A stretch of DNA of 64,000 bases from Patescibacteria group bacterium (GTDB taxonomy: Bacteria; Patescibacteriota; Minisyncoccia; Phycocordibacterales; Phycocordibacteraceae), in the NCBI GenBank assembly GCA_018971045.1, contig JAGWVF010000002.1, forward strand, positions 65,133 through 129,132, read 5' to 3'. The notes under the pieces are model-generated. The model saw only the letters and a list, made by a program, of their open reading frames with translations, did not search any database and was not told where the DNA came from. This document shows, piece after piece, positions 6,609-63,937 of this stretch. Every line of letters begins with the position of its first letter. Positions within the stretch are counted from its first letter, which is position 1. A program made the translations under genes and the position numbers.

Positions 6609-6768
6609 GTGTAGATCTAACCGGTTAATCTCGCTGAAACTGAACGCATGCGGCCGTCGCCGGCCAAGGCATTGCTCGAATACTCCGCGAGTAATTACAG
6701 TATGCCAGAAATGCGCGGAGTACGCAAGGCATTGTTGATAAGCGCCGCCGCATCGAAAAAGAGACACG

Positions 6769-6797
6769 TTGACTTCATTCGTCAGATTTGGTATATA
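6769..6797 (+). promoter_or_regulatory. sigma-70-like promoter (TTGACT - 17 nt - TATATA) upstream of the 6807 CDS
   Basis: TTGACT at 6769-6774, 17-nt spacer, TATATA at 6792-6797, ATG at 6807. No SD, so possibly a very short leader. Confidence 0.5.
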
Positions 6798-6806
6798 TTA
6801 GACCAC

Positions 6807-7955: not shown

Positions 7956-9317
7956 ATGTCGCTCCTCCATAGCGTTGAATCGGCACAGAAAAAAATAACC
8001 TCGAAAACCGGATTACGGTTCGAGCCATGGCCGCTCCTTCTTGTCGCTCTATCGGTTCTCCTCATGGCGTTTGTCTTTATGCCGAGCGTCGCAATGCTCT
8101 CGTTCTCGATGGCGCTCTTTCTCGCGCCGATATGGCTCCCCCTCTTGCTTGTCGGCGGCGCGATCGATCTCTGGTACATCTATAAACGCTCGGAATTCAT
8201 CGCGAGTAAACAATATGTTCTCCTTGAGATAAAGCCTCCGCGCAATCTCGCCAAAACGCCTCTCGCTATGGAGACATTCCTTTCGACGCTGCACCTGACC
8301 GGAGGCGAGTCGACCTGGTGGGCGCGTTTGAATGGAGGAACCCGCCCTTTCTGGTCGCTTGAGATCGCTTCGTTTGAAGGTCAGGTGCATTTCTTTATCT
8401 GGGGGCGCGCTGATTTCCGCAGGCTTATCGAATCGCAGCTGTATGCCCAGTATCCAGGCGTGCATATCGCCGAATCGCTTGACTACACTCGCCTCATCTC
8501 AGCAGCGCCCGAGGAATGGAGTCTGTGGGGGTGCGATTTTATGCATATGGCCGCCGATCCGCTGCCCATCAGGACGTACATTGAATACGGACTTGATAAA
8601 GTACAAAAAGAGCCGGAACAGACCGACCCGCTCGCCAATCTTATCGAGTTCATGGGCTCCATCGGAAAAGGGGAGTATCTCTGGCTCCAATTCATCGTGC
8701 GCGCTCATAAAGGAGAGAAGTATCATAAACACAATGAGAAAGGCGATCCCTTCACGTGGAAAGATTTGGCGAACGAGCTGGTTCAGGATATTCGGAAAGC
8801 GACTCGTGATCCTTATGTCGATCCGGCTACCGGCGAAGAACGGCCAGGATTTCCGAATCCTACCAAAGGTCAGGTAGAAAAAATCGCCGCGATCGAGCGC
8901 AACGTCTCAAAACTCGCGTTCGATGTCGGCGGACGCGGCGTGTATCTCTCTCGGCCGGAACATTTCCACAGCGCGACGATCCCTCAAATGATCTCTCTCT
9001 TTAAGCCGTTTAACTCGGAAGGGTGGAACGGGATCAAAGCATCGGCGTGGCTCATGCGTTTCGACGATTATCCGTGGGAAGTCGGCGTTTCGAAAAAGAA
9101 AGATCATTATCGCCGCGAGCTGGTTGACGCGTTCCGCCGCAGGCAGTTTTTCCATGACCCTTTTCATGAGGGAGGATTGCATGCGGATGACGCCATGGTT
9201 ATGAGCACCGAAGAGCTCGCGACCATCTTCCACATTCCCTCGCGCTCGGTCGAGACGCCAGGTCTCGGACGCGTGCAATCAGCGACCGGCGAAGCGCCGC
9301 CAGACCTGCCCGTCTAG
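7956..9317 (+). CDS. membrane protein: 2 N-terminal TM helices plus a domain paralogous to the N-terminal domain of the 49073-51847 ATPase
   Basis: 453 aa. TM helices LLLVALSVLLMAFVF and LFLAPIWLPLLLVGGAI. The soluble part aligns block by block with residues ~150-520 of the 924-aa ATPase (LLEIKPP~LYEIALPEP; FWSLEIASFEGQVHFFIWG~YYALELAVPAHSPELQFYAAIP; IESQLYAQYPGVHI~FEKQLLAVFPGARL; DPLANLIEF~DPLNALINAF; STEELATIFHIPSRSVETPGLGRV~SLRELTTIYHFPPSGMESSPHLRQ). Confidence 0.7.
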   Translation: MSLLHSVESAQKKITSKTGLRFEPWPLLLVALSVLLMAFVFMPSVAMLSFSMALFLAPIWLPLLLVGGAIDLWYIYKRSEFIASKQYVLLEIKPPRNLAKTPLAMETFLSTLHLTGGESTWWARLNGGTRPFWSLEIASFEGQVHFFIWGRADFRRLIESQLYAQYPGVHIAESLDYTRLISAAPEEWSLWGCDFMHMAADPLPIRTYIEYGLDKVQKEPEQTDPLANLIEFMGSIGKGEYLWLQFIVRAHKGEKYHKHNEKGDPFTWKDLANELVQDIRKATRDPYVDPATGEERPGFPNPTKGQVEKIAAIERNVSKLAFDVGGRGVYLSRPEHFHSATIPQMISLFKPFNSEGWNGIKASAWLMRFDDYPWEVGVSKKKDHYRRELVDAFRRRQFFHDPFHEGGLHADDAMVMSTEELATIFHIPSRSVETPGLGRVQSATGEAPPDLPV

Positions 9318-10293: not shown

Positions 10294-10359
10294 TCTTAAG
10301 GGGCGGAATACGAATAAGACCATAGCTAAAGAATCGATTTTTTGCTAAATTTTATTCAT

Positions 10360-12210
10360 ATGGAAAAGCACCCCCTACATCTCAAAAACCCAGAACTTCA
10401 GACTTCTCCTGAGGTCAATCGAGCTGTTGTTCAAGAAGAACGCCACACTGGCGAAAAAATGCCGAACGATCCTGGCGAGCGTATCGAAGCCTACATGGAT
10501 CGGCTTGAGAACATTTTCTTAAATCCGGACGAACGGAAGCGAGAGCGCAATCTCGAAATGTTCCGGGACAAGATTTATGACGCGCTCATCATAAAAAAAG
10601 AAAATTTTCCTGACAGCTATTTCGAACTCCAAAAGCGCATTGCGCGAGAGCGCGGCCAAGCCGTGGAAGAAATTCCGGAAAACGTCCGCGAGCAGATGAT
10701 GGACGTAGCCATCGATGATCAGAGGGCCTCGCTCGACGCATGGATCAACTACCTCGCCTCCGATGACGCCGTATATCCGGCGTGGTTCAAATACTACGCC
10801 TGGAATCAGATCACCAAGCTCTCCCAGTTCGACAAGGAGCGGGGCGAGTTCAAGAAGCGTACCGCTTCGACGGTCGCACCCTTTCCCGATATCTATCGCG
10901 AGCCATTAGCGCAGATCGCCGATCTCTACGAACGCGTCAAAGACGACAATAAAGACTCGGAAGCCCGTCGCGAATTCGACAAGAAGTTCCCCGTGCTCTA
11001 TGCCGAGCTCATCCAGAAATCACTCGCGGCACAGATAGAGAACAAGGAGAACGTCTCCGGGCAATGGGTGAAGTATGAGCAAGGAGACAGCGAAGCGGCG
11101 GAGAAACTTTATCAATCGCTCGAGGGCAAGGGCACCGGCTGGTGCACGGCCGGACATTCTACGGCGCAGGCGCAAATTAATAGCGGAGACTTTTATGTCT
11201 ACTACACCAATGACTCAAACGGCGAGCCGACCCAACCTCGTCTTGCCATTCGTATGAATGGCGACAACCGAATCGGCGAAGTGAGAGGCATCCTCCCTCA
11301 TCAAGGCGTTGAGCCGATCATGCAGGAAGTGCTTGATACCAAACTTCAAGAATTCGGCGGCGAAGCGGACGCATACCGCAAGAAAAGCGCGGATATGAAA
11401 ATGCTCACTGCGCTTGATCAGAAGAAAGAACAGGATCAACCCTTTGATAAGGACGATCTTGTATTCCTCTACGAAATCAATTCATCCATTGAAGGCTTCG
11501 GCTACCAGACCGATCCGCGCATCGCCGAACTCCGTCAAGAACGAAACGTCGAGGAAGACATGCTCACGATCTTTGAATGCACGAAAGACGAGATCGCTTA
11601 CGTCCCAAGCCAGATCACGAAAGACACTAAAGCCTATGTCGGACAGCTTGAGCCGGGCATCTTCCAGAAACTGCCCGAAGGTCTTGAGCATATGTACACT
11701 TCTTTCCCTGAAAAGAAAATCCGTAGGGATAGCATCGAGGTCGGCGGCAAGTCCGCGGAACAGCTCATATCCGAACTAAAAGCGGCAGGCATCCAGATTA
11801 CAAACAATGCAATGAGAATGCTTCTGAACAAGAAAGCATTCATTCCGACAAAAGATCTCGAGGATATGACCCTTATTCGCCTCGCTGTCGACGACCTCCT
11901 CGACTTCGAGCAGGATCCGTCCACCGATCGAATATTCGAGCGAGCGCAAGAGCTCGGTCTGGAAATCTGCCCGCCGGATACCGGCCCGGCTTGGCGCCTT
12001 AAGTATCGCAACCAGCCTTCGGGAAGATTGTTCATCGGCATGAAGCCAATCACTTGCTCCGACGGCCGCTCGCTCGGCCGCTCGTTCGTGTTCGGCCTGA
12101 CCCGGACCGACGACGGCGGCTTGTGGCTGTCCAACGATTGGGCGGATCCCGACGGCGAGTGGTTTCCGTACGACACGTTCGCGTTCCGTCTCCGCAAGCC
12201 TGAAGCTTAA
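10360..12210 (+). CDS. large hypothetical protein (616 aa), locally lower GC
   Basis: Long ORF with no recognisable domain. Preceded by an AT-rich segment. An alternative TTG start lies at 10342. GC by eye is about 50% against the ~60% window average. Confidence 0.6.
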   Translation: MEKHPLHLKNPELQTSPEVNRAVVQEERHTGEKMPNDPGERIEAYMDRLENIFLNPDERKRERNLEMFRDKIYDALIIKKENFPDSYFELQKRIARERGQAVEEIPENVREQMMDVAIDDQRASLDAWINYLASDDAVYPAWFKYYAWNQITKLSQFDKERGEFKKRTASTVAPFPDIYREPLAQIADLYERVKDDNKDSEARREFDKKFPVLYAELIQKSLAAQIENKENVSGQWVKYEQGDSEAAEKLYQSLEGKGTGWCTAGHSTAQAQINSGDFYVYYTNDSNGEPTQPRLAIRMNGDNRIGEVRGILPHQGVEPIMQEVLDTKLQEFGGEADAYRKKSADMKMLTALDQKKEQDQPFDKDDLVFLYEINSSIEGFGYQTDPRIAELRQERNVEEDMLTIFECTKDEIAYVPSQITKDTKAYVGQLEPGIFQKLPEGLEHMYTSFPEKKIRRDSIEVGGKSAEQLISELKAAGIQITNNAMRMLLNKKAFIPTKDLEDMTLIRLAVDDLLDFEQDPSTDRIFERAQELGLEICPPDTGPAWRLKYRNQPSGRLFIGMKPITCSDGRSLGRSFVFGLTRTDDGGLWLSNDWADPDGEWFPYDTFAFRLRKPEA

Positions 12211-48949: not shown

Positions 48950-49072
48950 AATGCACTCCAATGTACACGCGCGGATCCCCCACGCAAGGATGCTTATCAA
49001 GGGCAATAAGCCTGATATGAAATTATCATGTCGATGTGATTAGTCAAAAATTAATATCGTATACTGTGGAGT

Positions 49073-51847
49073 ATGGAATCTTCGCCGAAGCTCTCGACGC
49101 CTGAAGAAGAACTCTCGTATTTGCGCGAACAGGTGCTCCGCAAGGAGCGCGAGATAGCCCTTCAAACGGGGATCGAGAACACTAGCCCGGAACGCGAGCG
49201 GATCATCAGGGAACAGGTGCGCGCGCACCAAACGGCGCCTGCCGAAGCGTTCTCGCCCGAATATCATCTGAATGAAGCGACCCAAGCGGCGGCGGCGGAC
49301 GCGATTCTCGCCGAACTTGAACTTGGAAGTGGCGAGGAAGCGATCAAGAGCCTACAGAAAATCCTCGAGGAAAAGGGAATCAGGAACGCTCTCGCCGTCG
49401 CCGAGAAGATGCGCGATCCTCACGCAACCGACGACTTCCATCGCTATTTGGTGCGTTATGTCGCCGCCGGCCTGCCGATGCATGAAGGAGACGAGAAGGC
49501 GCCGCGCTTCCGGTCGCTTCATATGACGCTCTACGAGATCGCGCTTCCCGAGCCGAAGGCGGTCGAGCAGGGAGGACGGCAGAAGACTCTCAAAGAACTT
49601 ATTTCGGGCATGGAGCAGTTGTATGCCGGCCTCCTCTCGATCGAGGACGCTCTGCCGGGCGAACCGACGTACTATGCGCTCGAGCTCGCGGTGCCGGCAC
49701 ACAGTCCCGAATTGCAATTTTACGCCGCCATCCCGAATACGAAGAAGAATCTTTTTGAAAAACAGCTCCTCGCCGTCTTTCCCGGTGCGCGTCTGGTGCC
49801 TCAGCCGTACGATTACAACGTATTCGTTTCGAACGGTACGACGCTCGCCTCGGTCGCCGCGCTCGCAGAAAATCCGGCGCTCCCGTTGAAGGATTACGCT
49901 GATTTCGACCACGATCCTTTGAACGCGCTTATCAATGCTTTCGCTAAAATCGAGAACACCGGCGAGGGCGCCGCGCTCCAGATCATCATCGAGCCGCGCG
50001 CCGATCGGCACATGAAGCATTATCAAAAGATCCTGCAGGCGCTTCGCAAAGGCGAGAGACATGATGTGGCGTTCAAGACGCCCGAGACGATCATTGGTGA
50101 AATCGGGCGCGATTTCTCCCGCATCCTATTCTCGAATAAACCGAAGGACGTACAGAAGGCTAAAGAGGCCGAGACGCGCCAGATCGAAGCGAATAAGACC
50201 GCTATCGAGCAAGTCGAGAAGAAGATCGCGATGCCGATCGTCGGAGCCACGATCCGAGTCGTCGCGTCCTCGCACGACGCGCATACGGCGGCGCGGATCC
50301 TCGACGAGATCGAGTCGACCTTTCATCAGTTCGGAAATACGCAAGGGAATCATATCGAGTTCGCGCGCGCTACGGATCGAAGTGCGCAAGCGGTATTTGA
50401 CGCATTTTCCTTCCGTCTTCCGTCATCCGACGCGCTCCCGCTCTCCCTGCGCGAACTGACGACGATCTACCATTTTCCTCCATCGGGAATGGAGTCATCG
50501 CCGCATCTCCGGCAGGAGCGCTTCACGCACGCGCCGGCGCCGATCTCTCTGCCGCAGACAGGCGTACTGCTTGGCATTAATAATTATCGAGGGAAAGAGA
50601 CGCGTGTCTGCCTCGATCCTGAAGATCGCCTCCGTCATCTCTACGTCATCGGCCAAACCGGCACCGGGAAGACCGGACTCTTGAAGTCGATGATTCAACA
50701 AGACATTATGCGCGGGGAGGGATGCTGTTTTATTGATCCGCACGGCACCGACATTCTCGACATCCTCGCGATGGTGCCGCCTGCGCGTTACAAGGACGTT
50801 ATCTATTTCGACCCCGCCGATCTCTCGAGGCCGTTTGCGCTCAACTTCCTCGAGTATGACCTCTCGCGTCCGGAGCAGAAGACCTTCATCGTCAACGAAC
50901 TCCTCATGATCTTTCGCCGTCTCTACGGCGACGTTCCCGAGAGCATGGGGCCGGCGTTCGAGCAATACTTCCGCAACGCGACGCAACTCGTGATGGAGGA
51001 CCCGGCGAGCGGTTCCACCATCCTCGATATCGCGCGCGTTCTCTCAAATAGTGAATTTCGGCGGATGAAGCTCGCGAAAAGTATGAACCCGATCGTCAAC
51101 CAATTCTGGAACGAGATCGCGACTAAAGCTGGTGGCGAAGCATCGCTTGAAAATGTGGTGCCCCATATCACCAACAAGTTCGATGATTTCACCGCAAACG
51201 ACTTCATCCGGCCGATCGTCGGACAACAGCACTCCTCTTTTAATTTCCGCGAGGTGATGGATTCGAAGAAGATCCTACTCGTTAATCTCTCGAAGGGCCG
51301 CTTGGGCGAGAAGAACGCCAATCTTCTCGGACTCATCATCGTCGGTAAGCTCTTTATGGCGGCGCTTTCGCGCGCCGACTCGCCTCGCGCTCATTTTCCG
51401 CCTTTTTATCTCTATATTGACGAATTCCACAATGTAACGACCGATTCGATCCCCGGCATCCTCTCGGAAGCGCGCAAATATAAGCTTGCGCTCTCCGTGG
51501 CACATCAGTTCCTTAATCAGGTCGAGGAAGCGACGCGCCAAGCCGTGTTCGGCAACGTCGGCAATATGGCGATATTCCGCATCGGCGAAGAAGACGCGGA
51601 ATTTTTCGAAAAGCAGTTCGCGCCCGTCTTTACCGCGCTTGATTTCGTGAATATCGAGAATCGCAATGCGTACGTGAAGATTCTCGCGAAAGGCGTCCCG
51701 CAAAAGCCGTTTGATATGCGAACGCCGGATACGCCCGCCGGAAATCCCGAGCAGATCGACGATCTTATTCAACTCTCATCGCTCACTTACGGCCGCGATC
51801 GTGCTACAGTGGAGACTATGATCCGCGAACGGTATCTTACGCACTGA
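49073..51847 (+). CDS. P-loop NTPase of the TraD/TrwB/VirD4 coupling-protein or HerA/FtsK-like clade, with large N-terminal domain of unknown function
   Basis: 924 aa. Walker A GQTGTGKTG, Walker B YLYIDEFHN, sensor-like SVAHQ. A ~400-aa N-terminal non-ATPase domain is paralogous to the 7956-9317 protein. No TM helices. Confidence 0.75.
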   Translation: MESSPKLSTPEEELSYLREQVLRKEREIALQTGIENTSPERERIIREQVRAHQTAPAEAFSPEYHLNEATQAAAADAILAELELGSGEEAIKSLQKILEEKGIRNALAVAEKMRDPHATDDFHRYLVRYVAAGLPMHEGDEKAPRFRSLHMTLYEIALPEPKAVEQGGRQKTLKELISGMEQLYAGLLSIEDALPGEPTYYALELAVPAHSPELQFYAAIPNTKKNLFEKQLLAVFPGARLVPQPYDYNVFVSNGTTLASVAALAENPALPLKDYADFDHDPLNALINAFAKIENTGEGAALQIIIEPRADRHMKHYQKILQALRKGERHDVAFKTPETIIGEIGRDFSRILFSNKPKDVQKAKEAETRQIEANKTAIEQVEKKIAMPIVGATIRVVASSHDAHTAARILDEIESTFHQFGNTQGNHIEFARATDRSAQAVFDAFSFRLPSSDALPLSLRELTTIYHFPPSGMESSPHLRQERFTHAPAPISLPQTGVLLGINNYRGKETRVCLDPEDRLRHLYVIGQTGTGKTGLLKSMIQQDIMRGEGCCFIDPHGTDILDILAMVPPARYKDVIYFDPADLSRPFALNFLEYDLSRPEQKTFIVNELLMIFRRLYGDVPESMGPAFEQYFRNATQLVMEDPASGSTILDIARVLSNSEFRRMKLAKSMNPIVNQFWNEIATKAGGEASLENVVPHITNKFDDFTANDFIRPIVGQQHSSFNFREVMDSKKILLVNLSKGRLGEKNANLLGLIIVGKLFMAALSRADSPRAHFPPFYLYIDEFHNVTTDSIPGILSEARKYKLALSVAHQFLNQVEEATRQAVFGNVGNMAIFRIGEEDAEFFEKQFAPVFTALDFVNIENRNAYVKILAKGVPQKPFDMRTPDTPAGNPEQIDDLIQLSSLTYGRDRATVETMIRERYLTH

Positions 51848-51850
51848 CGT

Positions 51851-53611
51851 ATGGCATCTCCCGAACAACTTGGACGCCGGACAAATGGTCCGGAAAAAAT
51901 CGAAACCACGTTACCCGCATCACCGTCCGATGATCTGACAGGGACAGATCGCGACGATTTTATTGCGGCGCTTAAAAAATTACGATCGCGCGCCCTCGAA
52001 GACGGAGATTACCAGAAAATGTTTGCAATTGAAAACAGGCTCTGGGGAAAGGGTGGAATTGATGAAAAAGCGCTTTTGGGGAAGGAAGGGATTGACGAAG
52101 GAAGCGCCACGAGCCAGCCGCACGAGGAAGTCAAAAAAGATCCAGGTGAATTTCCAGCTTCAGTGGAAGCCGACGTGGATCCTTTTGCGGAAGATGAAGA
52201 TATGAGCGGGACGCCCGACGGGACGAGAGAATGGAGTGCGCGATGGAGAGGGAAACTGCGCAGTATCGTCGAGGGTTCAAAGGAACTGGTCGGCGGGTTG
52301 AGCGAGCGCGGCGCGCGCCTCTCCGAATATCTGAAGAATCGTTCAGTTGAAATAGACGCGAAAGCGGAAATGAGTAAATTGGAAAGAGGCTTTCGATGGA
52401 TGGGCGAGCGGTACGACAAGCTGGGATGGAAGTCGAAGGTCGCGATCGGCGCGAGTCTTGGCATCGGGGCAGGCGCCGCCTCCGCCATTTCTCTTCCCGT
52501 AGCGCTTGCGCTGACCGGAGGCATCGCGGCACAGCGGGTGTTTGGATTGGCAAGCGCGTTCACGAAGCTCGAGAAGCGGTATCAAGACAAGGAATCCGGC
52601 GGGTTTTTCGCGAAGAAAGAGAGGGCGATGGGGAAGGCGATGGTTCACGCGGCCTTCATGACGGGTGTGATGCTCGCCGTGGCCGAGGGGGCGAAAGAGG
52701 TTACCGAATACGCGAGAGAGCATCAGTTGACCGAGAGATTGCTGGAGTGGCTGAGGCATTCTCACTCCCTCGATCACTCCGCGCCGCCAACAGCGGCGCA
52801 TCCCGCGCCCGTTCTCGAAATGAATGCGCCCGCGAGCGGCAACCTCATGCCCGAGGTGTCGGTCGAGGCTTCTTCGAGAGGCTACGAAGGAATGACCAGG
52901 CACTTGTGGGAGCGATTGCAGGAACAGCATCTCGACCCGAGCAAGTTTCCTGAAGGGAGCGATATCCGCAGGCTTTTGGAGGCCGACGCGCATTCGATCG
53001 GAAAGGTCGCGCATCAGATCGCGAGCGATCCGTCGCACGGCTTCTTCAAGCCTGACGGTACGAGCGTCGTCGTCCCCGAGTCGGCGCATATGACCATCGG
53101 CGCTGACGGGCAACTGCATATGAGTGATTCGGCCCTTCCCGGAGGCTTTGTGCACGCGCCCGAGAACGCGGCCGTAACCGAAGGGTCTCAGCATCATTAT
53201 GAATGGGAGAATGAGCCGGTGAGAACGACCGTTGAACCAGTCCCAAGCGATACTCCCGCGTACGACGTTCCGCAAAATACGACGCCGGAGTCCGCTCCGT
53301 TCCAGACGCCCGACTCGCTTATCGAAACGCCTACACCCGACGCGCATATTTATAGCGGCTTAGACGGAGGCCGGCCGATCGCATTCGGCGGGACGCCAGA
53401 GAAGCTTCACGCGGCGATCACGGAGTATCTGAAGCAAAATCCGGGGAAGGGCATTGTCGGCAACGATGATGCGGGAGCGCATCGCGTTCTTTGGCATCTG
53501 GTTGACGACAAACTCACTTCGAGCGCCCCCTTGCGGGAAAAAATCTTCGGCCTCTTTTCGAGAACGCTCCCGCCGTTCGGCCCCGATGATTTCAGAAATA
53601 TTATCACCTAG
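51851..53611 (+). CDS. hypothetical membrane protein (586 aa), translationally coupled to the ATPase
   Basis: Starts 3 nt after the ATPase stop. Acidic N-terminal region, two central TM helices (AIGASLGIGAGAASAISLPVALALTGGIAA and AMVHAAFMTGVMLAVAEGA), His/Pro-rich C-terminal half. Confidence 0.6.
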   Translation: MASPEQLGRRTNGPEKIETTLPASPSDDLTGTDRDDFIAALKKLRSRALEDGDYQKMFAIENRLWGKGGIDEKALLGKEGIDEGSATSQPHEEVKKDPGEFPASVEADVDPFAEDEDMSGTPDGTREWSARWRGKLRSIVEGSKELVGGLSERGARLSEYLKNRSVEIDAKAEMSKLERGFRWMGERYDKLGWKSKVAIGASLGIGAGAASAISLPVALALTGGIAAQRVFGLASAFTKLEKRYQDKESGGFFAKKERAMGKAMVHAAFMTGVMLAVAEGAKEVTEYAREHQLTERLLEWLRHSHSLDHSAPPTAAHPAPVLEMNAPASGNLMPEVSVEASSRGYEGMTRHLWERLQEQHLDPSKFPEGSDIRRLLEADAHSIGKVAHQIASDPSHGFFKPDGTSVVVPESAHMTIGADGQLHMSDSALPGGFVHAPENAAVTEGSQHHYEWENEPVRTTVEPVPSDTPAYDVPQNTTPESAPFQTPDSLIETPTPDAHIYSGLDGGRPIAFGGTPEKLHAAITEYLKQNPGKGIVGNDDAGAHRVLWHLVDDKLTSSAPLREKIFGLFSRTLPPFGPDDFRNIIT

Positions 53612-53629
53612 TATGCTATCCTCTTCCTT

Positions 53630-53926
53630 ATGCACGACGAATTGACGGCCCTTATCGCCAAAGACCTCGGTATTGAATCACTGCCTCTTGATGATCAGAA
53701 GAATCTTATCGCGCAGTTCGGCGAAGTGGCGCTTAAGGCGGCGACACTCGCGGTAACGGAGAAGCTCTCGGCCGACAAGCAGGCGGAATTCATGAAGCTT
53801 GCCGAAGTCGGCGATGCGAAGGAGCTCAAAACGTTCCTCGATCGCGAAGTTCCCGATCACGAAGATATCGCTCAAGCCGCGGTCGCCGAGGAACTTAAGA
53901 AGTTTAAAGAATTTCAGACGCCGTAG
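53630..53926 (+). CDS. small acidic protein (hypothetical, 98 aa)
   Basis: No recognisable domain. Co-directional with the ATPase cluster. Confidence 0.45.
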   Translation: MHDELTALIAKDLGIESLPLDDQKNLIAQFGEVALKAATLAVTEKLSADKQAEFMKLAEVGDAKELKTFLDREVPDHEDIAQAAVAEELKKFKEFQTP

Positions 53927-54525: not shown

Positions 54526-55740
54526 ATGAGCGCCCTGACATTTAAGATCGAAGCCCGCGCCGCTCAGCACGGCCGCGCGGGGGTACTCACGACGCCGCAC
54601 GGCAGTATCCGCACGCCCGCCTTTGTTCCGGTCGGTACCAAAGCAAACGTGAAGGGTATTCTACCGAGCCAAATGCTTGCGCTCGGCGCTCAGGCGGTGC
54701 TCGCGAATACGTATCATCTCTATCTCCAGCCGGGCGAGACGATCGTGAAGAGAGCGGGAGGTCTCGGCGAGTTTATGCGATGGCCGGGGCCGACGATGAC
54801 CGATTCGGGCGGATTTCAGGTGTTCTCGCTCGGCGCCGCCTTCGGAAAAACGATTTCAAAATTTACCGCCGGCGAGACTCCGGAAGAGGAGGCCGTCGCC
54901 ATCTATGATGAGAGCGTCGCCAGCCAGCACGGCCAACTTGCGGTTATCGACGACGAGGGCGTTACCTTTACCTCGCACCTCGACGGATCGCTCCATCGAT
55001 TCACTCCGGAGCGCTCGGTTGAGATCCAGCATGCGCTCGGCGCCGACCTCTTCTTCGCGTTTGATGAGTGCACCTCGCCGGTCGAGCCGTATGCCTATCA
55101 GCGCGAGGCGATGGACCGGACGCATCGCTGGGCCGCGCGTTCGCTTACGGCGCATCGGCAGGATCTCGACGCGAACAAGAAACAGGCGATATTCGGCATC
55201 GTGCAGGGCGGCCGATATGAAGATTTGCGCCGCGAGTCCGCTCGGGAGATCGCCTCGCTCGGCTTTGACGGCATCGGCATCGGCGGATCGTTTTCAAAGG
55301 AGGACATGCGCGGAGCGCTTCAAGCGGCCGTGGAAGAATTGCCCGTTGAGCTTCCGCGCCACTTCCTCGGCATCGGCGAACCGGGCGACCTTCTCGAGGG
55401 CATCATGCAGGGAATGGATCTTTTCGATTGCGTCGCGTCGACGCGGATCGGCCGGCACGGATCCGTTTACACGCGCCGCGGCATCATCCACCTGAAGAGC
55501 GAGAGATATCGCGATGATTTCTCGCCGATCGATCCGAGTTATGCGGCGCCGGGAACCGAGGGATTCACGCGCGCGTACGTGGCGCATCTGATCCGATCGA
55601 AAGAAATGCTCGGCTCGCAGATCTGTTCGATGCACAACATCGGCTTCATTCTTGCGCTTGTCGACGGCGCTCGCCAGGCTCTTCTTGAGGGGCGGTTCGA
55701 CGCGTACCGTTCGGACTTCATTCGCGACTACTATGGATAA
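54526..55740 (+). CDS. tgt: queuine tRNA-ribosyltransferase
   Basis: 404 aa. TGT motifs (TPAFVPVGT, DSGGFQV) and a C-terminal Zn site (C..C..C..H pattern near CSMHN). Confidence 0.9.
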   Translation: MSALTFKIEARAAQHGRAGVLTTPHGSIRTPAFVPVGTKANVKGILPSQMLALGAQAVLANTYHLYLQPGETIVKRAGGLGEFMRWPGPTMTDSGGFQVFSLGAAFGKTISKFTAGETPEEEAVAIYDESVASQHGQLAVIDDEGVTFTSHLDGSLHRFTPERSVEIQHALGADLFFAFDECTSPVEPYAYQREAMDRTHRWAARSLTAHRQDLDANKKQAIFGIVQGGRYEDLRRESAREIASLGFDGIGIGGSFSKEDMRGALQAAVEELPVELPRHFLGIGEPGDLLEGIMQGMDLFDCVASTRIGRHGSVYTRRGIIHLKSERYRDDFSPIDPSYAAPGTEGFTRAYVAHLIRSKEMLGSQICSMHNIGFILALVDGARQALLEGRFDAYRSDFIRDYYG

Positions 55741-57805
55741 TTTCAAACTCCATCTTCCTTTTAATCCGGCGGGAGATCAGCCGGCGGCGATAGCCGCGCT
55801 TCTACGTGGCCTCGATGAAGGCATGCGCGATCAGATCCTCTTTGGAGCGACGGGAACGGGAAAGACCTTCACTATCGCCAATGTGATCGCCCGCCACGGA
55901 AAGCCGACGCTGGTCCTCGCGCACAATAAAACGCTCGCGGCGCAACTCGCGCAGGAGTACCGCGAATTCTTCCCTGAGAATGCCGTGCATTACTTCGTCT
56001 CCTATTACGATTACTATCAGCCGGAAGCGTATATCGCGCATTCGGATACGTATATCGAGAAGGAAGCGATGATCAACGCCGAGATCGACCGGCTCCGCCA
56101 CGCGGCGACGCAGGCGCTCCTCACGCGGAGCGACGTCATTATCGTCGCTTCCGTCTCGGCGATCTACGGCCTCGGCTCGCCGGAGGAATATGAGAGCGTG
56201 CATGTCAAAATCCAAACGCAGGAAGCCGTGGCAGGCGGACGGGGAGGGCTTATTCGAAAATTGATCGGCATCTATTTTGAACGCACGAACGCCGATCTGA
56301 ATCCGGGGCAATTGCGCGCGATCGGCAATTCGCTCGAATTTATGCCCGTCAACGAGCGCGTGCTGTACCGCATCGGCTTTGAGGGAGATATCGTCGCCTC
56401 GATCGATCAGCTCGACCCGGTCTCGCGCGCGCAGATGGCGGAGCCGACGTCCGTGTTCGTCTTTCCGGCAAAGCACTTCGTGACGAGCGAGAAGGAGCGC
56501 GATCGCGCCATCGAGGATATCAAGCTCGAACTCGAAGAGCAGCTGGCCAAATTCAAGCGCGAGGAGAAGCCGCTTGAAGCCGAGCGGCTGAAGCGCCGCA
56601 CGCTCCACGACCTCGCGCTCATCCGCGAACTCGGCTACACGAGCGGGATCGAGAATTACTCGCGCCATTTTGACGGGCGGAAGCCGGGGGAGCCGCCGCA
56701 TACCCTGCTCTCCTATTTCCCTCACGCCAAGGATGGATCGGCGGAATTTCTTACCGTGATCGACGAATCGCACGTGACGGTGCCGCAGATCGGAGGGATG
56801 TACGCGGGCGACAAGTCGCGCAAGGATGTTCTCGTCGAATACGGTTTTCGCCTCCCTTCGGCGCGCGACAACCGGCCGCTCACGTTTGAAGAGTTCGAGG
56901 CGCGCGTGGGGCAGATCATCTACACGAGCGCGACGCCGGGATCTTATGAAAAGAGCCGTGCCAAGCAGGTGGTGGAACAGGTGATTCGTCCGACCGGCCT
57001 CGTCGATCCCGAGCTATCGGTCCGACCCGTCATTGAAGGCGCGTCGAGCGGAGCGCCCGGCTATCCGGGACAAATCGCTGATTTCATTGCCGAAGCGGAG
57101 ACGGTCATCAAGCGAGGCGGCCGCGCGCTCGCGACTACGCTGACCAAGCAGATGGCCGAGGATCTCGCCGATTTTCTCAAAAAGAAGGGAATCAAGGCCG
57201 AGTATCTCCACTCCGACGTGAAGACCATTGATCGTATTGATATCCTGAGCACGTTCCGTCAAGGAGGTTTCGATATTCTAGTCGGGGTTAATCTCTTGCG
57301 CGAAGGGCTTGATCTGCCCGAGGTGGAGCTGGTCGGCATTCTCGACGCCGATAAGGAAGGATTTTTGCGCAGCGAGACGTCGCTCATCCAGACTATCGGC
57401 CGCGCGGCGCGGAACGTGCTGGGACGCGTTATCCTGTACGCGGACGTGATGACTGGATCTCTCGAACGCGCGATCAGCGAGACGAACCGCCGCCGCGCCA
57501 TTCAGATCGCCTATAATCAGAAGCACGGCATCACTCCGCAGACGATTAAAAAGGAGATTCACGATATCGCCGCTTCGATGCGCACCGAGCATCAGCGAAC
57601 CGTTCATGAACTTCTTGCTCTCGACACGCTTGCGTACAAGGACAATCCGAAGGAGTTCATCGCGCGCAAACGAGAAGAGATGGCGGAGGCGGTCGAGCGG
57701 CTCGACTTTGAGACGGCGGCGCTTCTCCGCGACGAAATCTACAGATTCGAAGGCACGACTCCCAAGGCGCGTAAACCCCGCGTTCGTAAACCGCTCAGTG
57801 GATAA
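55733..57805 (+). CDS. uvrB: excinuclease ABC subunit B
   Basis: Start trimmed to MDNFKLH, overlapping the tgt stop (ATGGATAA). Helicase motifs GATGTGKTF and DESH; C-terminal UvrB-UvrC interaction helix. Confidence 0.95.
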   Translation: MDNFKLHLPFNPAGDQPAAIAALLRGLDEGMRDQILFGATGTGKTFTIANVIARHGKPTLVLAHNKTLAAQLAQEYREFFPENAVHYFVSYYDYYQPEAYIAHSDTYIEKEAMINAEIDRLRHAATQALLTRSDVIIVASVSAIYGLGSPEEYESVHVKIQTQEAVAGGRGGLIRKLIGIYFERTNADLNPGQLRAIGNSLEFMPVNERVLYRIGFEGDIVASIDQLDPVSRAQMAEPTSVFVFPAKHFVTSEKERDRAIEDIKLELEEQLAKFKREEKPLEAERLKRRTLHDLALIRELGYTSGIENYSRHFDGRKPGEPPHTLLSYFPHAKDGSAEFLTVIDESHVTVPQIGGMYAGDKSRKDVLVEYGFRLPSARDNRPLTFEEFEARVGQIIYTSATPGSYEKSRAKQVVEQVIRPTGLVDPELSVRPVIEGASSGAPGYPGQIADFIAEAETVIKRGGRALATTLTKQMAEDLADFLKKKGIKAEYLHSDVKTIDRIDILSTFRQGGFDILVGVNLLREGLDLPEVELVGILDADKEGFLRSETSLIQTIGRAARNVLGRVILYADVMTGSLERAISETNRRRAIQIAYNQKHGITPQTIKKEIHDIAASMRTEHQRTVHELLALDTLAYKDNPKEFIARKREEMAEAVERLDFETAALLRDEIYRFEGTTPKARKPRVRKPLSG

Positions 57806-57866
57806 GTCCCGCAAGGCCTTGCCGCATGTTCTATACTCCTAAGGGAGCATCAAAAGAACGATTTCC

Positions 57867-58502
57867 ATGCCTTATTATCCAGACGACGATAAATCCCTCT
57901 ACATTAGTCCCACCGTTGGCATTTCGATCAGCCTTATTCTCTTGGTTGTTGGCGGCGGTCTTGGCGCTCTCACGTCTTGGTACCTCTCAAAGCCGGCGAT
58001 TGCGCCCGAGTGCAGTACTGCCGAGCTCAATCAGAAATATCAGAGCGGATTTGAAGCCGCGAAGCAATTGGTCGAGAACAGCAGCATCGGCGGCGCCTTT
58101 CGCCCTGCTACCGACGTGCGTACGCTCACCGGCACGGTTACCTCGGTGAGCGCTGATCGCTTCACCCTGAACAGTCCGTCCGTAAATCCCTTTGATGACC
58201 AATCAATGAATATTCGAACCGTCTTCTTTTCCGGAACAACGACGATTGTCGCGCTTATTCCTAAAGATCCCGTTGCGTATCAAAAAGAGATGGACGTCTT
58301 CGTCAGGTCAGCTCGTTTGGGCACGTCAACGCCGTTAAACGCGCCGTCTTCGACAACCGAGATCGCTAAGAAAACAGCGGATATCAAAGTCGGCGATGCG
58401 ATTACCGTTATTGCCGCCGAGAATATCAGATCCCTTAAGGAGTTTCCTGCGGATAAAATCGAGATCTTAATTCCTTCATCTCTTCATGCACCACTTCCAT
58501 AG
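57867..58502 (+). CDS. membrane-anchored hypothetical protein
   Basis: 211 aa. N-terminal TM helix and an extracytoplasmic Ser/Thr-rich domain. Confidence 0.5.
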   Translation: MPYYPDDDKSLYISPTVGISISLILLVVGGGLGALTSWYLSKPAIAPECSTAELNQKYQSGFEAAKQLVENSSIGGAFRPATDVRTLTGTVTSVSADRFTLNSPSVNPFDDQSMNIRTVFFSGTTTIVALIPKDPVAYQKEMDVFVRSARLGTSTPLNAPSSTTEIAKKTADIKVGDAITVIAAENIRSLKEFPADKIEILIPSSLHAPLP

Positions 58503-59961
58503 ATTCAATTCAGCGATAGCTGGCATAGGGTTGGCTTCCGTACTCTTTTTTACGGGCGGCGCGGTTGCGTATGCGAGCGGCGGAAATACGGCCTTTACGT
58601 GCCCGACCGGAACCTATATGACCGGCCTTTATTTTCCCAATCTGGCCGAAAGTAATTATCAAGATTTTTCCGGCGTTACGGCAACTTGCGTACCGGCGAC
58701 CATGGGCGCGCCCTTTTTCCCTACGGGAGGAGGAGGCGCGGGAGTTACCTGCTACCAGAGCCCGGGCCAATTCGGGGTCGAGTCCAGCGTCACTTTCCCG
58801 ATAGTGGGCGGAGTACCGACAGCCCTCGGAGTGCAGGGTACGTGCGCGGCCATCGTGACCAACTCCGCTTCCGTACCGGCTGTCTATTCAGAAGATCCTA
58901 CGTCATGGAGCCGGCTTGACTGCCCGCCGAACTCTTTTCTCAATTACTTCTATTTCCCGAACGCATGGAGCCCAACTCAGCCCGGCTTATACTTAAGTGG
59001 CGGATGCCAGGCTCTCCCTCCGACGGCAAGTCTCAGCGCTGCTCCAACCACAGTGAATTCAGGCGGCGCCACGCACTTAAATTGGGGCTCCGTTGGAGCG
59101 TCGAACTGCACGGCTGGCGGTCCGTGGAGCAATGCAAGCTCGCCTCTTTCAGGAAGCGGATGGGGTAACTCTCTGTTTGCCGACGCTATTTACACGTTCC
59201 AGTGCTCGGCATTCGGCGGCTTCCTGCAGTCGCTTCTCCAGTCAGTCACCGTGAGGGTGAATACCTGCAATTTGCCGTGGGGAGGAACGATAGCCGACGG
59301 ACAATCCGTTACCGCGTATCAAAGCGCATCGTCGGCGACCTGCCCCTCTGAGACGCGCGTTTGTCAGGGATCAACGCTGAGCGGAACGTATCAGTCGCAA
59401 AACTGCACATCGACGTCAAGCAACACGATCGTCGCCACTCTTACCGCAACGCCGAGTCAAGTCAAATTCGGGAAGTCGTCTGTTCTTACTTGGACGTCTC
59501 AGAATGCGACCGAATGTGACGCCGTCGGCGGATTTACGACCGGCGGCATGCCGAATAACGCCACGGGCGTCTCCGTCGGCCCGATCACTTCGGTTCAAAA
59601 TTATCAGATATTCTGTTTCTACCGGACGGCGGCGGGAGATATTACGAATCAAGCATATTCGAATATAGCGACGGTTACCGTTCCGACGCCGATCTCCATC
59701 AATGCTTCTCAGACTCGCGTGCCGCCGGGGAGTCAGGTAACTATCTCGTGGACCTCCACGCTGCCGGCGAATTCCTACAACTGCCAGCTCTTGGGGCCGA
59801 ATGTTCCCGCGCTCGGCAACTTAACCTTCCCCGGAAGCCAGAAAGTCGTGATTAATTCCCAATCGGTCTACACTATTTCCTGCACCGATCCGTTAGGCGG
59901 AACCCCGCCGCCGGCGGTCTCGGTGCGAGTGAACATTACCGGATCTTCTCGAGAGTTCTAG
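58486..59961 (+). CDS. secreted/surface Cys-, Thr-, Gly-rich protein with internal repeats (Ig-like modules)
   Basis: 491 aa. Signal/TM segment. Duplicated N-terminal modules ([14 protein letters not shown]... / [14 protein letters not shown]...) and repeated ...TWTS... beta-rich modules with paired Cys. Confidence 0.55.
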
Positions 59962-60021
59962 AGACTCGTCTCGTGTGGTACACTGAACGCGAACCTGCCC
60001 CGCCACGGGCAGGGAATTCGC

Positions 60022-62700
60022 ATGCCGAAACAAACCAAGAAAAAAGAAATCCCTCGAGATCCTGTCCGGGATAAGCAACATAAGCACGGAAGCGACTGGC
60101 TTTCCGTGAGAGGCGCCCGCACGCATAATCTGAAGAATATCTCGGTGGATATGCCGCGCGGCGCGATGACGGTGATCACCGGACTTTCCGGTTCGGGGAA
60201 GAGCTCGCTCGCCTTCGATACGATCTTCGCGGAAGGACAGCGGCGGTATGTCGAATCCCTCTCAGCCTACGCGCGCCAGTTCTTAAATCAAATGGCGAAG
60301 CCGGACGTCGACGAGATCAGCGGCCTCTCGCCGGCTATTTCAATCGACCAGAAAAGCCGCTCCAATAATCCGAGATCCACCGTCGCGACCGTTACCGAGA
60401 TTTACGATTATTTGCGCGTGCTCTATGCGCGCGCCGGACAGCCCTACTGCATCCATCACGATGTCCCGATCTCGCGCCTTTCAAAGGAGGAGATGATCAA
60501 GATGGTCTTTTCGCGCGTCGAGAAGAAGCGCAAAGGCGCGGCCGCAGGATCCGCGGAAAAGGTGATGGGCGTCGCCGTTGATAGAAGCGCGGTTACCGTC
60601 TACGCGCCCGTCGTGGTGGGGCGCAAGGGAGAATACTATCAACTGCTCTACGATCTGCTCGGGAAGGGCTACGAGCGCGCCGTCATTGACGGGAAGCCGT
60701 TCTCATTGCGCGAGAAGATTGAACTCGATCGAAATAAACAGCACTCAATCGACGCGGTCGTTGACTCCATCTACGTCTCCGAGTTTGCACGCTCGGCCGA
60801 GAGCGCGCGCGAGCGCCTCTCCGAGGCTCTGGAGCTCGCGCTTAAAGAAACCGGAGGGCTCGTGAAGATAGCCCATGCCGACGGTTCGGTCGAAACTCTC
60901 TCGTCGAGGTTTATTTGTCCGGAAGACGGCGCGTCTTTCCCCGAGGTGGAACCTCGCCTCTTCTCTTTTAATTCTCCGTACGGAGCGTGCCCGGAGTGCC
61001 ACGGCCTCGGCACCGAATCGCTCTTCTCCGACGCGCCGTGTCCGGTCTGCGGGGGGAAACGCCTGCGTCCGGAGGCCTTGCGCGTCTATTTGAAGAGCAA
61101 GAAGGACGCGACGCTCGGTAAAAACATCGTGGATTTCACCGGCATGTCGATTCGCGAGGCAAAGGAATTCGTCGATTCGATCGCGCTGTCCGAGATGAAG
61201 CGCGAGATCGCCTCGCCGATACTTAAGGAGATCGACAGCCGGCTCGCGTTCATGCTGAATGTCGGCCTCGATTACTTGACCCTGAATCGTTCGGCCGCGA
61301 CGCTCTCTGGCGGCGAGGCTCAGCGCATCCGCCTCGCGTCCCAGCTCGGGAGCGGGCTCACGGGCGCGCTCTACGTCCTTGACGAACCGACGATCGGACT
61401 CCATCAGCGCGACAACGACCGCCTCATCAAGACCTTATTGGTGCTCAAAGAGCTCGGCAATACGATCATCGTCGTCGAACACGATGAAGACACCATCTAC
61501 GCCGCCGATTATCTGGTAGATATCGGTCCGAGCGCGGGAATTCACGGCGGCACGGTCGTAGCCGCCGGATGGCTTGATGACCTGCTTACGGCGAAGAAAA
61601 ACGAGAGCGGTTCGGTAACGCTCGCGTATCTGCGCGAAGAGAAGGAGATCGCCATTCCTGAAGAGCGCCGCACGAGCGAGAAGGGGTGGATCAAGGTGCG
61701 CGGCGCGACGCTCCATAATATAAAAAATCAAAATATTGACGTGCCGCTCGGCAGGCTCGTAGGCATCACGGGCGTGTCGGGGAGCGGGAAGTCGACCTTT
61801 CTGTACGACATCCTGCACCGGAATATCGCGGCGCGCTTCATGCGCCGCGAAGCCGCGCTCGCGCACGCGAGCGCTCTGACCGGCACCGAGTATGTCGGCC
61901 GTGCGGTGCTTATCGATCAGTCGCCGATCGGCCGCACGCCGCGCTCGAATCCGGCCACCTATACGGGCGCGTTCACTCACATTCGCGATCTCTTCGCGGC
62001 GACCGCTGAAGCGCGAGCGCGCGGCTGGAAGCCGGGCCGATTCTCATTCAATGTCCCCGGCGGGCGCTGTGAAGCCTGTCAAGGGAACGGCTCCATCGCG
62101 GTCGAGATGCACTTCCTCCCGACGGTTTACGTAACCTGCGATATCTGCGGCGGCAAGCGCTTTATGAAAGAGACGCTCGAGATCACCTATCGGGGGAAGA
62201 ATATCCACGAAGTGCTCATGATGACGATCGAAGAGGCCGAACGATTTTTTGAAGATATTCCGGCCATTTCCGATCGTCTGCGGAGCTTAAACGCGACGGG
62301 GCTTGAATATCTCACGCTCGGCCAGAGCGCGACGACGCTCTCGGGCGGCGAGGCTCAGCGGGTGAAGATCGCGAGCGAGATGTACCGTCCGATGACGATG
62401 AAGACGATCTACCTTCTCGACGAACCGACAGTCGGCCTCCATTACGAGGACGTGCGCAAGCTCATCGAGATTCTCCAGGAACTCGTGCGCCGCGGCAATA
62501 CGGTCGTCGTGATCGAGCATAATCTCGACGTGATCAAAAGCGCCGATTATCTTATCGACTTCGGTCCCGAGGGAGGTCTTGACGGCGGCAAGGTTGTCGC
62601 GAAGGGCACGCCTGAAGAAGTGGCAAAGACCTCGGGATCGCACACGGGCGCCTATCTCGCGAAGACATTCTCGCGCCATGCAAAGAAGCGAACTCGATAG
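60022..62700 (+). CDS. uvrA: excinuclease ABC subunit A
   Basis: 892 aa. Two ABC ATPase modules ([14 protein letters not shown]; [13 protein letters not shown]) and zinc-finger Cys pairs. Confidence 0.95.
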
Positions 62701-63937
62701 ATTCAATCTCCCGGACGTGCCGGGAGTGTACCTCTTCAAGAAGGGCAGGCGCGTGATCTATATCGGCAAGGCGACATCGCTCCGCGATCGGGTGCGCTCC
62801 TACTTCGACGACGATCTCATCGCCGCGCGCGGCCCGCGCATCGTCGACATGGTCACGCAGGCGACCGCTCTTACGTATCAGAGCACCGCCACGGTTCTGG
62901 AGGCGCTGGTGCTTGAAGCCGCGCTCATAAAAAAATACCAGCCGAGAGCGAATGCGATCGGAAAAGACGATAAGAGCTTTTTATACGCCGTCATTACCCG
63001 GGAGCCGATCCCGCGCGTGCTCACCGTGCGGAAGAAGGACATCGATTTTGAAAAGAAGAGCGCGCCTCTCCCTCTGATGACGGAACTCGAATCGATCTAC
63101 GGGCCGTTCACGTCGGGGTCGCAGTTGCGAGAAGCGCTTCGGCTCATTCGCCGCATCTTCCCGTTCTTCGATACTCAAAAGCCCGTCGGTTCAAGAAGCA
63201 AGCATCAAGCGGCAAAGATAGAATTTAATGCGCAGATTGAGCAATACCCGCGCGACGTTACGGAATATCGCCGGACGATCCGGCACGTGAAGCTCTTACT
63301 GAGCGGCCGAGGGAAGGAACTGCGCGCGTCGCTTGCGCGCGAGATGAGGCGGGCGGCCCGCGACGAGCGTTTTGAAGAGGCGATGGAGGCCCGCCGTGCG
63401 CTCTTCGCGCTCGATCACCTGCAGGACGTCTCTCTCATTAAAGACGAACATCGGCGCGCCGATGGAGAGCCTCACGCCGAAGAAGGCAAGGGTATGCGAA
63501 TTGAAGCGTACGACACCGCGCACCTCGCGGGAACCAGCGCGATCGGGGTGATGACGGTCGTCGAGGGCGGCGAGCCAGTCAAAAGGGAATACCGGACCTT
63601 CCGCATCCGGGGCGTGAAAAAGAATGACGACGTCGGTTCGCTGAAAGAAATCCTTTCGCGCCGGCTCGATCATCCCGAATGGCCCTTCCCGGGCGTAATC
63701 GTGATCGACGGCGGCGCCGCGCAGAAGAGGGCGGCCGAGACGGTTTTGAAAGAGCGCGGATTCGCGATCCCGGTGGTCGGGGTCGTGAAGGATGAACGGC
63801 ATCGCCCCCGCGAGGTGATCGGCGCGCGGCGCGCGGGCGTCCTCGAGGCGGACGCCGTGCTCGCGAACGCGGAGGCGCACCGCTTCTCGCTCGCGCGCCA
63901 CCGCATCGCGCGCGCGCAAGCTCTGCATTTGAAATGA
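62678..63937 (+). CDS. uvrC: excinuclease ABC subunit C (short form lacking C-terminal HhH domain)
   Basis: Trimmed to MQRSELD; overlaps the uvrA end by 23 nt. GIY-YIG N-terminus (GVYLFKKGRRVIYIGKA) and RNase-H-like endonuclease region (IEAYDTAHLAGTSAIGVMTV). Stops after about 419 aa. Confidence 0.85.
   Translation: MQRSELDRFNLPDVPGVYLFKKGRRVIYIGKATSLRDRVRSYFDDDLIAARGPRIVDMVTQATALTYQSTATVLEALVLEAALIKKYQPRANAIGKDDKSFLYAVITREPIPRVLTVRKKDIDFEKKSAPLPLMTELESIYGPFTSGSQLREALRLIRRIFPFFDTQKPVGSRSKHQAAKIEFNAQIEQYPRDVTEYRRTIRHVKLLLSGRGKELRASLAREMRRAARDERFEEAMEARRALFALDHLQDVSLIKDEHRRADGEPHAEEGKGMRIEAYDTAHLAGTSAIGVMTVVEGGEPVKREYRTFRIRGVKKNDDVGSLKEILSRRLDHPEWPFPGVIVIDGGAAQKRAAETVLKERGFAIPVVGVVKDERHRPREVIGARRAGVLEADAVLANAEAHRFSLARHRIARAQALHLK

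Follow-up and report, generated by a model that had tools for sequence, protein, structure and literature searches.

The three-gene module described here lies at positions 49073-53926 of a 64,000-nucleotide window (contig JAGWVF010000002.1, positions 65,133 to 129,132, forward strand) from a Patescibacteria group bacterium (assembly GCA_018971045.1), and is centred on a P-loop ATPase of the class to which the coupling proteins of type IV secretion systems belong. Three co-directional open reading frames (ORFs) were found on the + strand, with the same coordinates as in the initial annotation of this DNA. They encode a 924-amino-acid (aa) ATPase protein (49073-51847), a 586-aa membrane protein (51851-53611), which starts 3 nucleotides (nt) after the stop codon of the ATPase gene, and a 98-aa acidic protein (53630-53926), which follows after a gap of 18 nt. 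The tight coupling that had been noted between these genes stands, and the arrangement recurs in related genomes. All three ORFs are real genes, since a protein identical to the 924-aa product is deposited at NCBI, where it is named 'DUF87 domain-containing protein [Patescibacteria group bacterium]'. Homologues that are 75-80% identical to it number in the hundreds and belong to Candidatus Kaiserbacteria/Paceibacterota; the source organism is itself a Kaiserbacteria-like member of the Patescibacteria (Candidate Phyla Radiation).

GC content is even along the region, the module having the same value as its flanks, and the scanned ORFs of the window, which cover all the largest ORFs as well as the genes flanking the module, are of a housekeeping nature (tRNA synthetases, topoisomerase I, RelA/SpoT, a MurC-like ligase, TGT and UvrABC). 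No gene for VirB4, a relaxase or a pilin was found among these scanned ORFs, in agreement with the earlier statement that conjugation and secretion components are not present nearby.

A coupling-protein-class ATPase domain

Residues 495-924 of the large protein (50555..51847, + strand) form the ATPase domain. Its Walker A motif (residues 527-534, DNA 50651-50674) lies within GQTGTGKTG (residues 527-535), its Walker B motif is YLYIDEFHN (residues 779-787, DNA 51407-51433), and R801, described as an arginine-finger equivalent, is part of a SEARKY motif. In the AlphaFold2 (AF2) model an all-helical insert of about 115 residues (602-716) is located between the two Walker motifs. Ten residues (G527, G530, K533, D783, E784, E799, R801, K802, Q812 and Q816) are invariant both in 52 diverse homologues of 29-48% identity and in 129 closer ones, which disposes of the concern, raised with the initial annotation, that the motifs might prove degenerate on proper alignment. 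The Walker A, Walker B, arginine and glutamine motifs by which the nucleotide-binding domain of the VirD4/VirB4/FtsK/HerA class is recognised are all intact.

Among the Pfam families tested on this half of the protein, DUF87 scored above its cutoff; TrwB_AAD_bind narrowly missed its own, with 20.4 against a cutoff of 20.5, and TraG-D_C also remained just below (20.5 against 22). The NCBIfam models for TraD and VirD4 gave 33-45 bits against cutoffs of 250-650, the matches to TraD and VirD4-like (CD1115) having expectation values (E) of 1e-8 to 1e-12, and in the same scans VirB4 and FtsK matched at about 0.06 and 0.09, respectively. The VirB4 family TIGR00929 reached E 0.062 and 11.5 bits against a cutoff of 643, and AAA_10 reached E 0.23. 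In precomputed annotation, PF10412, PF02534 and PF12696 are assigned to many of the homologues. When a profile of the 52 diverse homologues was compared with PDB sequences, TrwB (3e-7) and DotL (3e-6) were found, with alignments spanning the Walker A region and the Walker B/GRK/Q region, while the match obtained with the single sequence was limited to the P-loop region of TrwB. In our comparison table the coupling proteins scored 18.4 (DotL/IcmO), 17.3 (Cagbeta, a VirD4 protein) and 15.1 (TrwB), the VirB4 type 15.8 (TrwK) and 15.6 (VirB4 C-terminal domain), and the other ATPases 15.6 (DndH C-domain), 13.2 (HerA), 9.5 (TcpA) and 8.6 (FtsK). Coupling proteins are the best matches of the domain in sequence and structure taken together, with HerA and FtsK clearly lower. 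The C-terminal half is an intact P-loop ATPase of the coupling-protein class (TraD/TrwB/VirD4), one of the two types that had been proposed from its motifs, and the sequence matches to TraD, VirD4 and TrwB support this.

The N-terminal half

The remainder of the protein had been put forward as a novel N-domain, a description that gives way to two conserved parts. Residues ~147-494 (49511..50554, + strand) form an alpha/beta domain, DUF8128, within which a charged helical insertion occupies residues ~330-385. Precomputed annotation assigns PF26449/DUF8128 to the identical protein and to all close homologues; our local Pfam scan gave no DUF8128 match for the 924-aa protein. Residues 140-500 modelled alone yielded a pLDDT of 85.8 and a pTM of 0.82, and a Foldseek search with this model ranked 14 TrwK/VirB4 chains at the top (E 4.8e-6 to 4e-3). 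As modelled, DUF8128 is a VirB4-N-terminal-domain-like fold, and the 924-aa protein carries an N-terminal domain of the VirB4 type. In the R388 structure it is through its N-terminal domain that VirB4 binds VirB3 and VirB8 at the membrane, which is used here as an analogy only.

In front of DUF8128 lies an all-helical N-terminal extension (residues 1-131, 49073..49465, + strand), supported by a hidden Markov model (HMM) match and by the AF2 model, in which it is helical with a pLDDT of 60-83. Relatives whose ATPase carries a transmembrane (TM) segment often have a separate gene instead: of the 28 TM-type loci whose upstream DNA extends far enough, 19 encode a soluble protein of ~135 aa at 1-180 nt 5' of the ATPase gene. 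An HMM of 18 such stand-alone proteins, built without iteration (an iterated version drifted into the whole ATPase), matches residues 11-127 of the 924-aa protein with E 5.3e-9 and also matches the N-termini of 39 fused-type homologues. The extension has no match among Pfam families and none above cutoff in NCBIfam, and the N-domain alone found no match in a tblastn search of plasmids. Because the separate upstream proteins are homologous to residues 11-127, the Kaiserbacteria/Paceibacteria form, to which the 924-aa protein belongs, is a ~135-aa partner protein fused to a DUF8128-ATPase minus its TM anchor. One locus (L055:1641-4340, from the metagenome-assembled genome (MAG) UBA3531) shows a gene for a 136-aa N-extension followed after 6 nt by an ORF for a 760-aa TM-less DUF8128-ATPase, which is either a transitional state between separate and fused genes or the artefact of a break in sequencing.

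Membrane anchoring across the family

A Kyte-Doolittle scan detected no hydrophobic segment of the 924-aa protein outside the ATPase core, so the reported lack of a TM anchor holds for this protein; it does not hold for the family. Since 45 of the 52 diverse homologues carry an N-terminal TM segment, the TM loss is a lineage-specific state and not a family trait. A search of 1.84 billion cluster representatives delivered a family of 20,147 clusters, 5,056 of them at E <= 1e-30, of which most of the more distant members (~790-850 aa, 33-42% identity) begin with a strong N-terminal TM segment and align to the 924-aa query only from about residue 147 on. For neighbourhood analysis, 80 loci, all apparently from Patescibacteria, were taken from species-representative genomes, and 79 of these could be analysed: 39 encode a TM-less ATPase with the N-extension, 32 a TM-anchored one, and 8 are truncated. 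Many MAG record titles in this set ('uncultured Candidatus Saccharibacteria', 'Bdellovibrionales', 'Gammaproteobacteria') look unreliable, and contigs with such doubtful titles (L005, L053, L063 and others) bear a gene and synteny of the Paceibacteria type.

Partner genes and their conservation

The 586-aa protein consists of a variable acidic N-terminal region, hydrophobic segments, a middle domain, Pro-rich linkers and a C-terminal domain. Its hydropathy profile shows Gly/Ala-rich hydrophobic stretches at residues 197-235 and 259-281 (DNA 52439-52693), corresponding to two or three TM passes. The protein has no Pfam match, and nothing in Pfam or NCBIfam scored above cutoff. We detected 21 homologues (29-45% identity, 518-999 aa), in which the juxtamembrane/TM region, a middle domain of ~110 aa and a C-terminal domain of ~90 aa are conserved; for at least 7 of the 21, the longest contig is as long as that of an ATPase homologue, and one ATPase/membrane-protein pair has the consecutive locus tags DIV48_02530 and DIV48_02535. 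One of the 21 (P0140) has a DnaJ J-domain (E 3.6e-17) at its N-terminus, which speaks for a location of that end in the cytoplasm. A large protein with central TM segments is encoded directly 3' of the ATPase in L003, L006, L008, L040, L044, L078 and L079; the HMM of the 586-aa family matches those of L003 and L008 only, and the partners of L006 and L078 join the family only through BLAST with the L008 protein.

The 98-aa protein, with an isoelectric point of 4.6, aligns over its full length with Pfam DUF5663 (model positions 4-82 of 84); the score, 23.0 bits, lies just below the cutoff of 23.7. No NCBIfam model scored above its cutoff for this protein, and PF18908 (DUF5663) is listed for it in precomputed annotation; DUF5663-like homologues from other loci score 18.7-20 bits. 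In addition to the window, 12 of the fetched loci have, by HMM, a DUF5663-like gene no more than about 3.5 kb away from that of the ATPase; it follows the membrane-protein gene in Kaiserbacteria-like loci and precedes the N-extension gene in most TM-type loci. This linkage in both deep branches, whose ATPases share ~40% identity, is the best evidence for a functional tie, and the 98-aa protein is a candidate adaptor or regulator. As to conservation of the neighbourhood, which had been suggested as a check, the DUF5663-like gene is linked to the ATPase gene in these 12 of the 79 analysed loci, from both branches, and the gene of the 586-aa protein adjoins it only in Kaiserbacteria-like genomes. 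Other fused-type Paceibacteria have the Pfam-confirmed order secY-adk-map-[ATPase]-ndk, which is a context of housekeeping genes and not an island. Linkage to VirB3, VirB6 or VirB8-like genes was not found in the window or in the 79 analysed loci, where the neighbours are housekeeping genes.

Homologues outside Patescibacteria

A DUF8128-ATPase homologue is encoded on Bacillus plasmids (including those of B. subtilis) and aligns to query residues 207-883 with E 7e-26. It is directly followed by genes for a 'replication-relaxation family protein', TcpE, a VirB4-like ATPase and conjugal-transfer proteins, a gene order which indicates that on these small plasmids the DUF8128-ATPase holds the coupling-protein slot beside the relaxase. 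No sequence similarity was seen between the 924-aa protein and the VirB4-like protein of the Bacillus plasmid. On the haloarchaeal plasmid NZ_CP119798.1 of Halomontanus rarus (L085:6566-10811), DUF8128 occurs as a stand-alone soluble protein of 391 aa (E 6e-37 with the N-domain HMM), the gene of which overlaps by 11 nt the start of a gene for a 1,026-aa 'TraM recognition domain' ATPase; this overlap implies that the two modules can work as separate chains. A second 'TraM recognition domain' ATPase, TM-bearing and 1,109 aa long, is encoded just upstream on the same plasmid. Among phages, gp156 of Bacillus phage G (JN638751.1 91048-93063) is a DUF8128-plus-ATPase homologue (23% identity, query residues 216-871, E 7e-27), and phrog_5156, for which PHROG assigns no function, covers nearly the whole 924-aa protein. 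Neither the PHROGs match nor the tblastn match in phages points to a function.

A TM-bearing paralogue of the N-domain and other genes of the window

Elsewhere in the window, the ORF at 7956..9317 (+ strand) encodes a 453-aa protein that BLASTP, HMM and TM prediction identify as a TM-plus-DUF8128 paralogue. Strong TM helices at residues 18-76 are followed by a complete DUF8128 domain, which matches the N-domain of the 924-aa protein in BLASTP (E 1e-9) and in the N-domain HMM (E 1e-40, model positions 14-342 of 348), is nearer to the N-domains of TM-type than of fused-type proteins, and stops precisely at the point at which the ATPase domain would otherwise start. Nothing in local Pfam or NCBIfam scored above cutoff for this protein. 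The '7956 paralogue' of the initial annotation is therefore a paralogue of the N-domain and not of the ATPase, and an ATPase hexamer including its product, as had been envisaged, falls away, the 453-aa protein having no ATPase domain. It could possibly serve as a membrane anchor in trans. A split ATPase partner for it was sought and rejected, the ORFs at 10342-12210 and 58486-59961 being without a P-loop. In its overall architecture the 453-aa protein parallels EccE of the mycobacterial type VII systems. As a counterpart of the system described here EccE is more remote: it is less similar in structure, shows no similarity in sequence, and further components of type VII systems are absent. Directly 5' of the gene lies one for a 412-aa protein with a Sigma70 region 4 and a HARE-HTH domain (6648-7886, +), and 4 nt separate it from MltG/YceG (9322-10293) on its 3' side; the 622-aa protein encoded at 10342-12210 (+), between MltG and a tRNA 2-thiouridylase (MnmA-like) gene, has no Pfam match.

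Upstream of the module, the leader at 49040..49072 (+ strand) is AT-rich, with a -10-like TATACT element and a GGAG ribosome-binding site 2-3 nt 5' of the ATG. It was read directly from the sequence as a candidate promoter and ribosome-binding site; the consensus scan did not score the promoter, and the scan for promoters and terminators gave a site count not above that of shuffled sequence. The leader may possibly be the promoter and ribosome-binding site of the module, an assignment that is weakly indicated. Downstream of the module, after FKBP and TGT genes, there is a uvrB, uvrA, uvrC cluster (55652-63937, +), the linkage of which to the module is absent in the other lineages examined. The same region contains a gene at 57867-58502 for a 211-aa protein with an N-terminal TM segment, lying 5' of the gene at 58486-59961 (+) for a 491-aa Cys/Ser/Thr/Gly-rich protein; the latter has an N-terminal hydrophobic segment, internal repeats and no Pfam match, and resembles a secreted or surface protein.

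Interpretation

We favour, with moderate confidence, the view that the locus encodes a chromosomal, relaxase-less ('orphan') ATPase of the type IV coupling-protein family together with its partners, exapted to a core cellular role. ATPases of this family are nearly universal in Patescibacteria and functionally uncharacterised. The status of a core gene is suggested by the 75-80% identity across Kaiserbacteria, the 20,147 clusters, the housekeeping synteny and the uniform GC content. In the mechanism that we propose, the 924-aa protein would form an ATPase ring on the cytoplasmic side of the membrane and would be tethered there in trans, by way of its N-extension and DUF8128, by the translationally coupled 586-aa membrane protein, with the TM-DUF8128 product of the gene at 7956 as perhaps an additional tether. 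The 98-aa acidic protein may act as an adaptor or regulator, in analogy to CagZ, IcmS/IcmW and TraM, which have such roles for other coupling proteins. ATP hydrolysis would then power the recruitment of a macromolecule, either protein or DNA, and its movement to the membrane or through it, a function that would have arisen in conjugation and later been co-opted for a core role in the cell. The functions put forward in the initial annotation (uptake or export of DNA, or transfer to a host cell) are speculative.

Several observations weigh against this view. DUF87 is the only curated family whose cutoff is reached, and the oligomeric state and the membrane localisation of the 924-aa protein are themselves inferred. 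The 586-aa family evolves fast, its adjacency is restricted to Kaiserbacteria-like genomes (other fused-type Paceibacteria have ndk 3' of the ATPase gene), and the membrane partners in L040, L044 and L079 have no detectable homology to it. A DUF5663-like gene is near the ATPase gene in only 12 of the 79 analysed loci plus the window, and the scanned window ORFs yielded no substrate, relaxase or channel component. The VirB4-like fold of the N-domain, taken alone, would also be compatible with a VirB4-like assembly role. A survey of 3,035 Patescibacteria genomes (Quinonero-Coronel et al. 2025, PMC12102498) reports that Ca. Southlakia epibionticum has a coupling-protein homologue, which may or may not belong to the DUF8128 family, and that epibiotic growth did not require it.

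A serious, if minority, possibility is that the 924-aa protein is the working coupling protein of a patescibacterial VirB4-type secretion system that is encoded elsewhere, delivering effectors or DNA, and is merely unlinked to it. The fold and sequences of the coupling-protein class speak for this, as do the Bacillus plasmid homologues in conjugation operons. The same survey data can be read in both directions: coupling-protein genes often lie away from virB4, and VirB4 was found in 2,417 genomes (80%), in a separate patescibacterial clade with a different genomic context; however, the 5,713 VirD4-type coupling-protein homologues, about two per genome, are spread over 2,918 genomes, more than have VirB4, only 148 of them are near virB4, and the secretion-system genes of Southlakia were essential although its coupling-protein homologue was not (PMC12102498). 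Against this alternative there are also the conserved partners of the module itself, the N-extension and the DUF5663-like protein, neither of which is among the known components of secretion systems. This alternative overlaps with the explanation that we favour, in which the ATPase may either serve a VirB4 system or act alone. A bolder proposal, which we hold to be unlikely, sees in the DUF8128 ATPases an ancient lineage, intermediate in evolution between VirB4 and VirD4, that retains a VirB4-type N-domain on a motor of the VirD4 type. In Patescibacteria it would have become an autonomous, VirB4-independent core machine moving DNA or protein between epibiont and host; besides the ATPase, this machine would comprise the N-extension protein, the DUF5663-like protein as adaptor and a membrane protein that is specific to the lineage and exposed at the surface.

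The remaining explanations carry far less weight. That the protein is a divergent VirB4-type assembly ATPase of a cryptic minimal secretion or uptake machine (in TM-bearing relatives the equivalent of a VirB3-VirB4 fusion) and not a substrate receptor fits the fold of its N-domain, yet the rankings by sequence and structure and the genomic context make it quite improbable. We regard as very improbable a HerA/FtsK-like housekeeping DNA translocase, active in segregation, repair or DNA uptake without a secretion role: HerA and FtsK score clearly under the coupling proteins, the 924-aa protein has a VirB4-like N-domain in place of a HAS-barrel or a polytopic FtsK-type N-terminus, it has no gamma domain and does not belong to the FtsK motor-domain family, no NurA-like nuclease or other effector partner adjoins it, and the uvr linkage was not seen in other lineages. 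Finally, the chance that the module is an anti-phage defence ATPase (of the MADS mad8-like, DndH-like or HerA-effector type) or the remnant of a decayed integrated conjugative element is close to negligible. No methylase, nuclease, Sir2, integrase or relaxase is encoded nearby, the gene keeps a housekeeping position across classes and has the GC content of its flanks, its 75-80% identity extends across a candidate phylum-level group, and its catalytic residues are invariant. PADLOC gave no match for either partner protein; its sole match, to mad8 on the ATPase core, was rejected as a sign of defence, given that the gene sits in a core-genome context.

Patescibacteria rely on host cells, and little is known of how the two exchange material. 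The present analysis adds that the member of this ATPase family in the window has a docking domain of the VirB4 type. It also adds a conserved small protein, fused to the ATPase or encoded by a gene of its own, an acidic protein whose gene is linked, and a membrane partner that evolves fast and is confined to one lineage. This list of parts amounts to a concrete, testable candidate for a core translocation module and may provide a structural link between the VirB4 and VirD4 families.

Comparison with known systems

With TrwB of R388, VirD4/Cagbeta, DotL/IcmO and TraD, the 924-aa protein shares the ATPase fold and its motifs (Walker A and B, a GRK-type arginine and a conserved glutamine); the helical insert that is predicted between Walker A and Walker B may correspond to the all-alpha domain of coupling proteins. 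It differs from them in the ~350-aa VirB4-like N-domain (DUF8128) that precedes the ATPase, in having no TM domain, in the chromosomal position of its gene (the scanned ORFs of the window yielded neither relaxase nor channel genes) and in its own set of partners, the N-extension protein and the DUF5663-like protein; moreover, it does not reach the cutoffs of the curated coupling-protein families. To our knowledge, no DUF8128-like domain occurs in TrwB, VirD4 or DotL. In comparison with VirB4/TrwK of R388, there is no significant sequence similarity to VirB4 families and the gene is not linked to VirB3, VirB6 or VirB8.

The pairing of a TM-less coupling protein with a separate membrane protein is a recognised class (PMC7431656). 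TraJ of pIP501 is TM-less and has been proposed to form a VirD4-type complex with the separately encoded membrane protein TraI (PMC7431656), which is the arrangement that we propose for the 924-aa and 586-aa proteins; pIP501 differs in being conjugative and in having both a relaxase and a complete transfer operon, and no sequence relationship is known between the partner proteins of the two systems.

Similar in genomic setting are the orphan VirD4-type homologues counted in the survey mentioned above (PMC12102498), which are likewise chromosomal, rarely near virB4, about two per genome and without a relaxase, relaxases having been found in only 103 genomes; its authors state that exaptation 'cannot be ruled out'. 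The 924-aa gene probably belongs to this population, since NCBI lists close homologues of its product as 'type IV secretory system conjugative DNA transfer family protein' or 'TraM recognition domain-containing protein', among other names; this assignment is made by name, and the survey counted with CONJScan profiles. The accessible text of the survey does not describe the domain architecture, the VirB4-like N-domain, the N-extension or the DUF5663-like and membrane partners, and in the literature searched we found no mention of DUF8128 or DUF5663, nor of DUF87 in connection with the Candidate Phyla Radiation. The system can no longer be called undescribed, as it was in the initial annotation, given the existing Pfam entry DUF8128, the NCBI names and the orphan homologues already counted (PMC12102498). 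The coupling-protein machine itself is already known; the VirB4-like N-domain and the module's own partner set make it a new variant of that machine.

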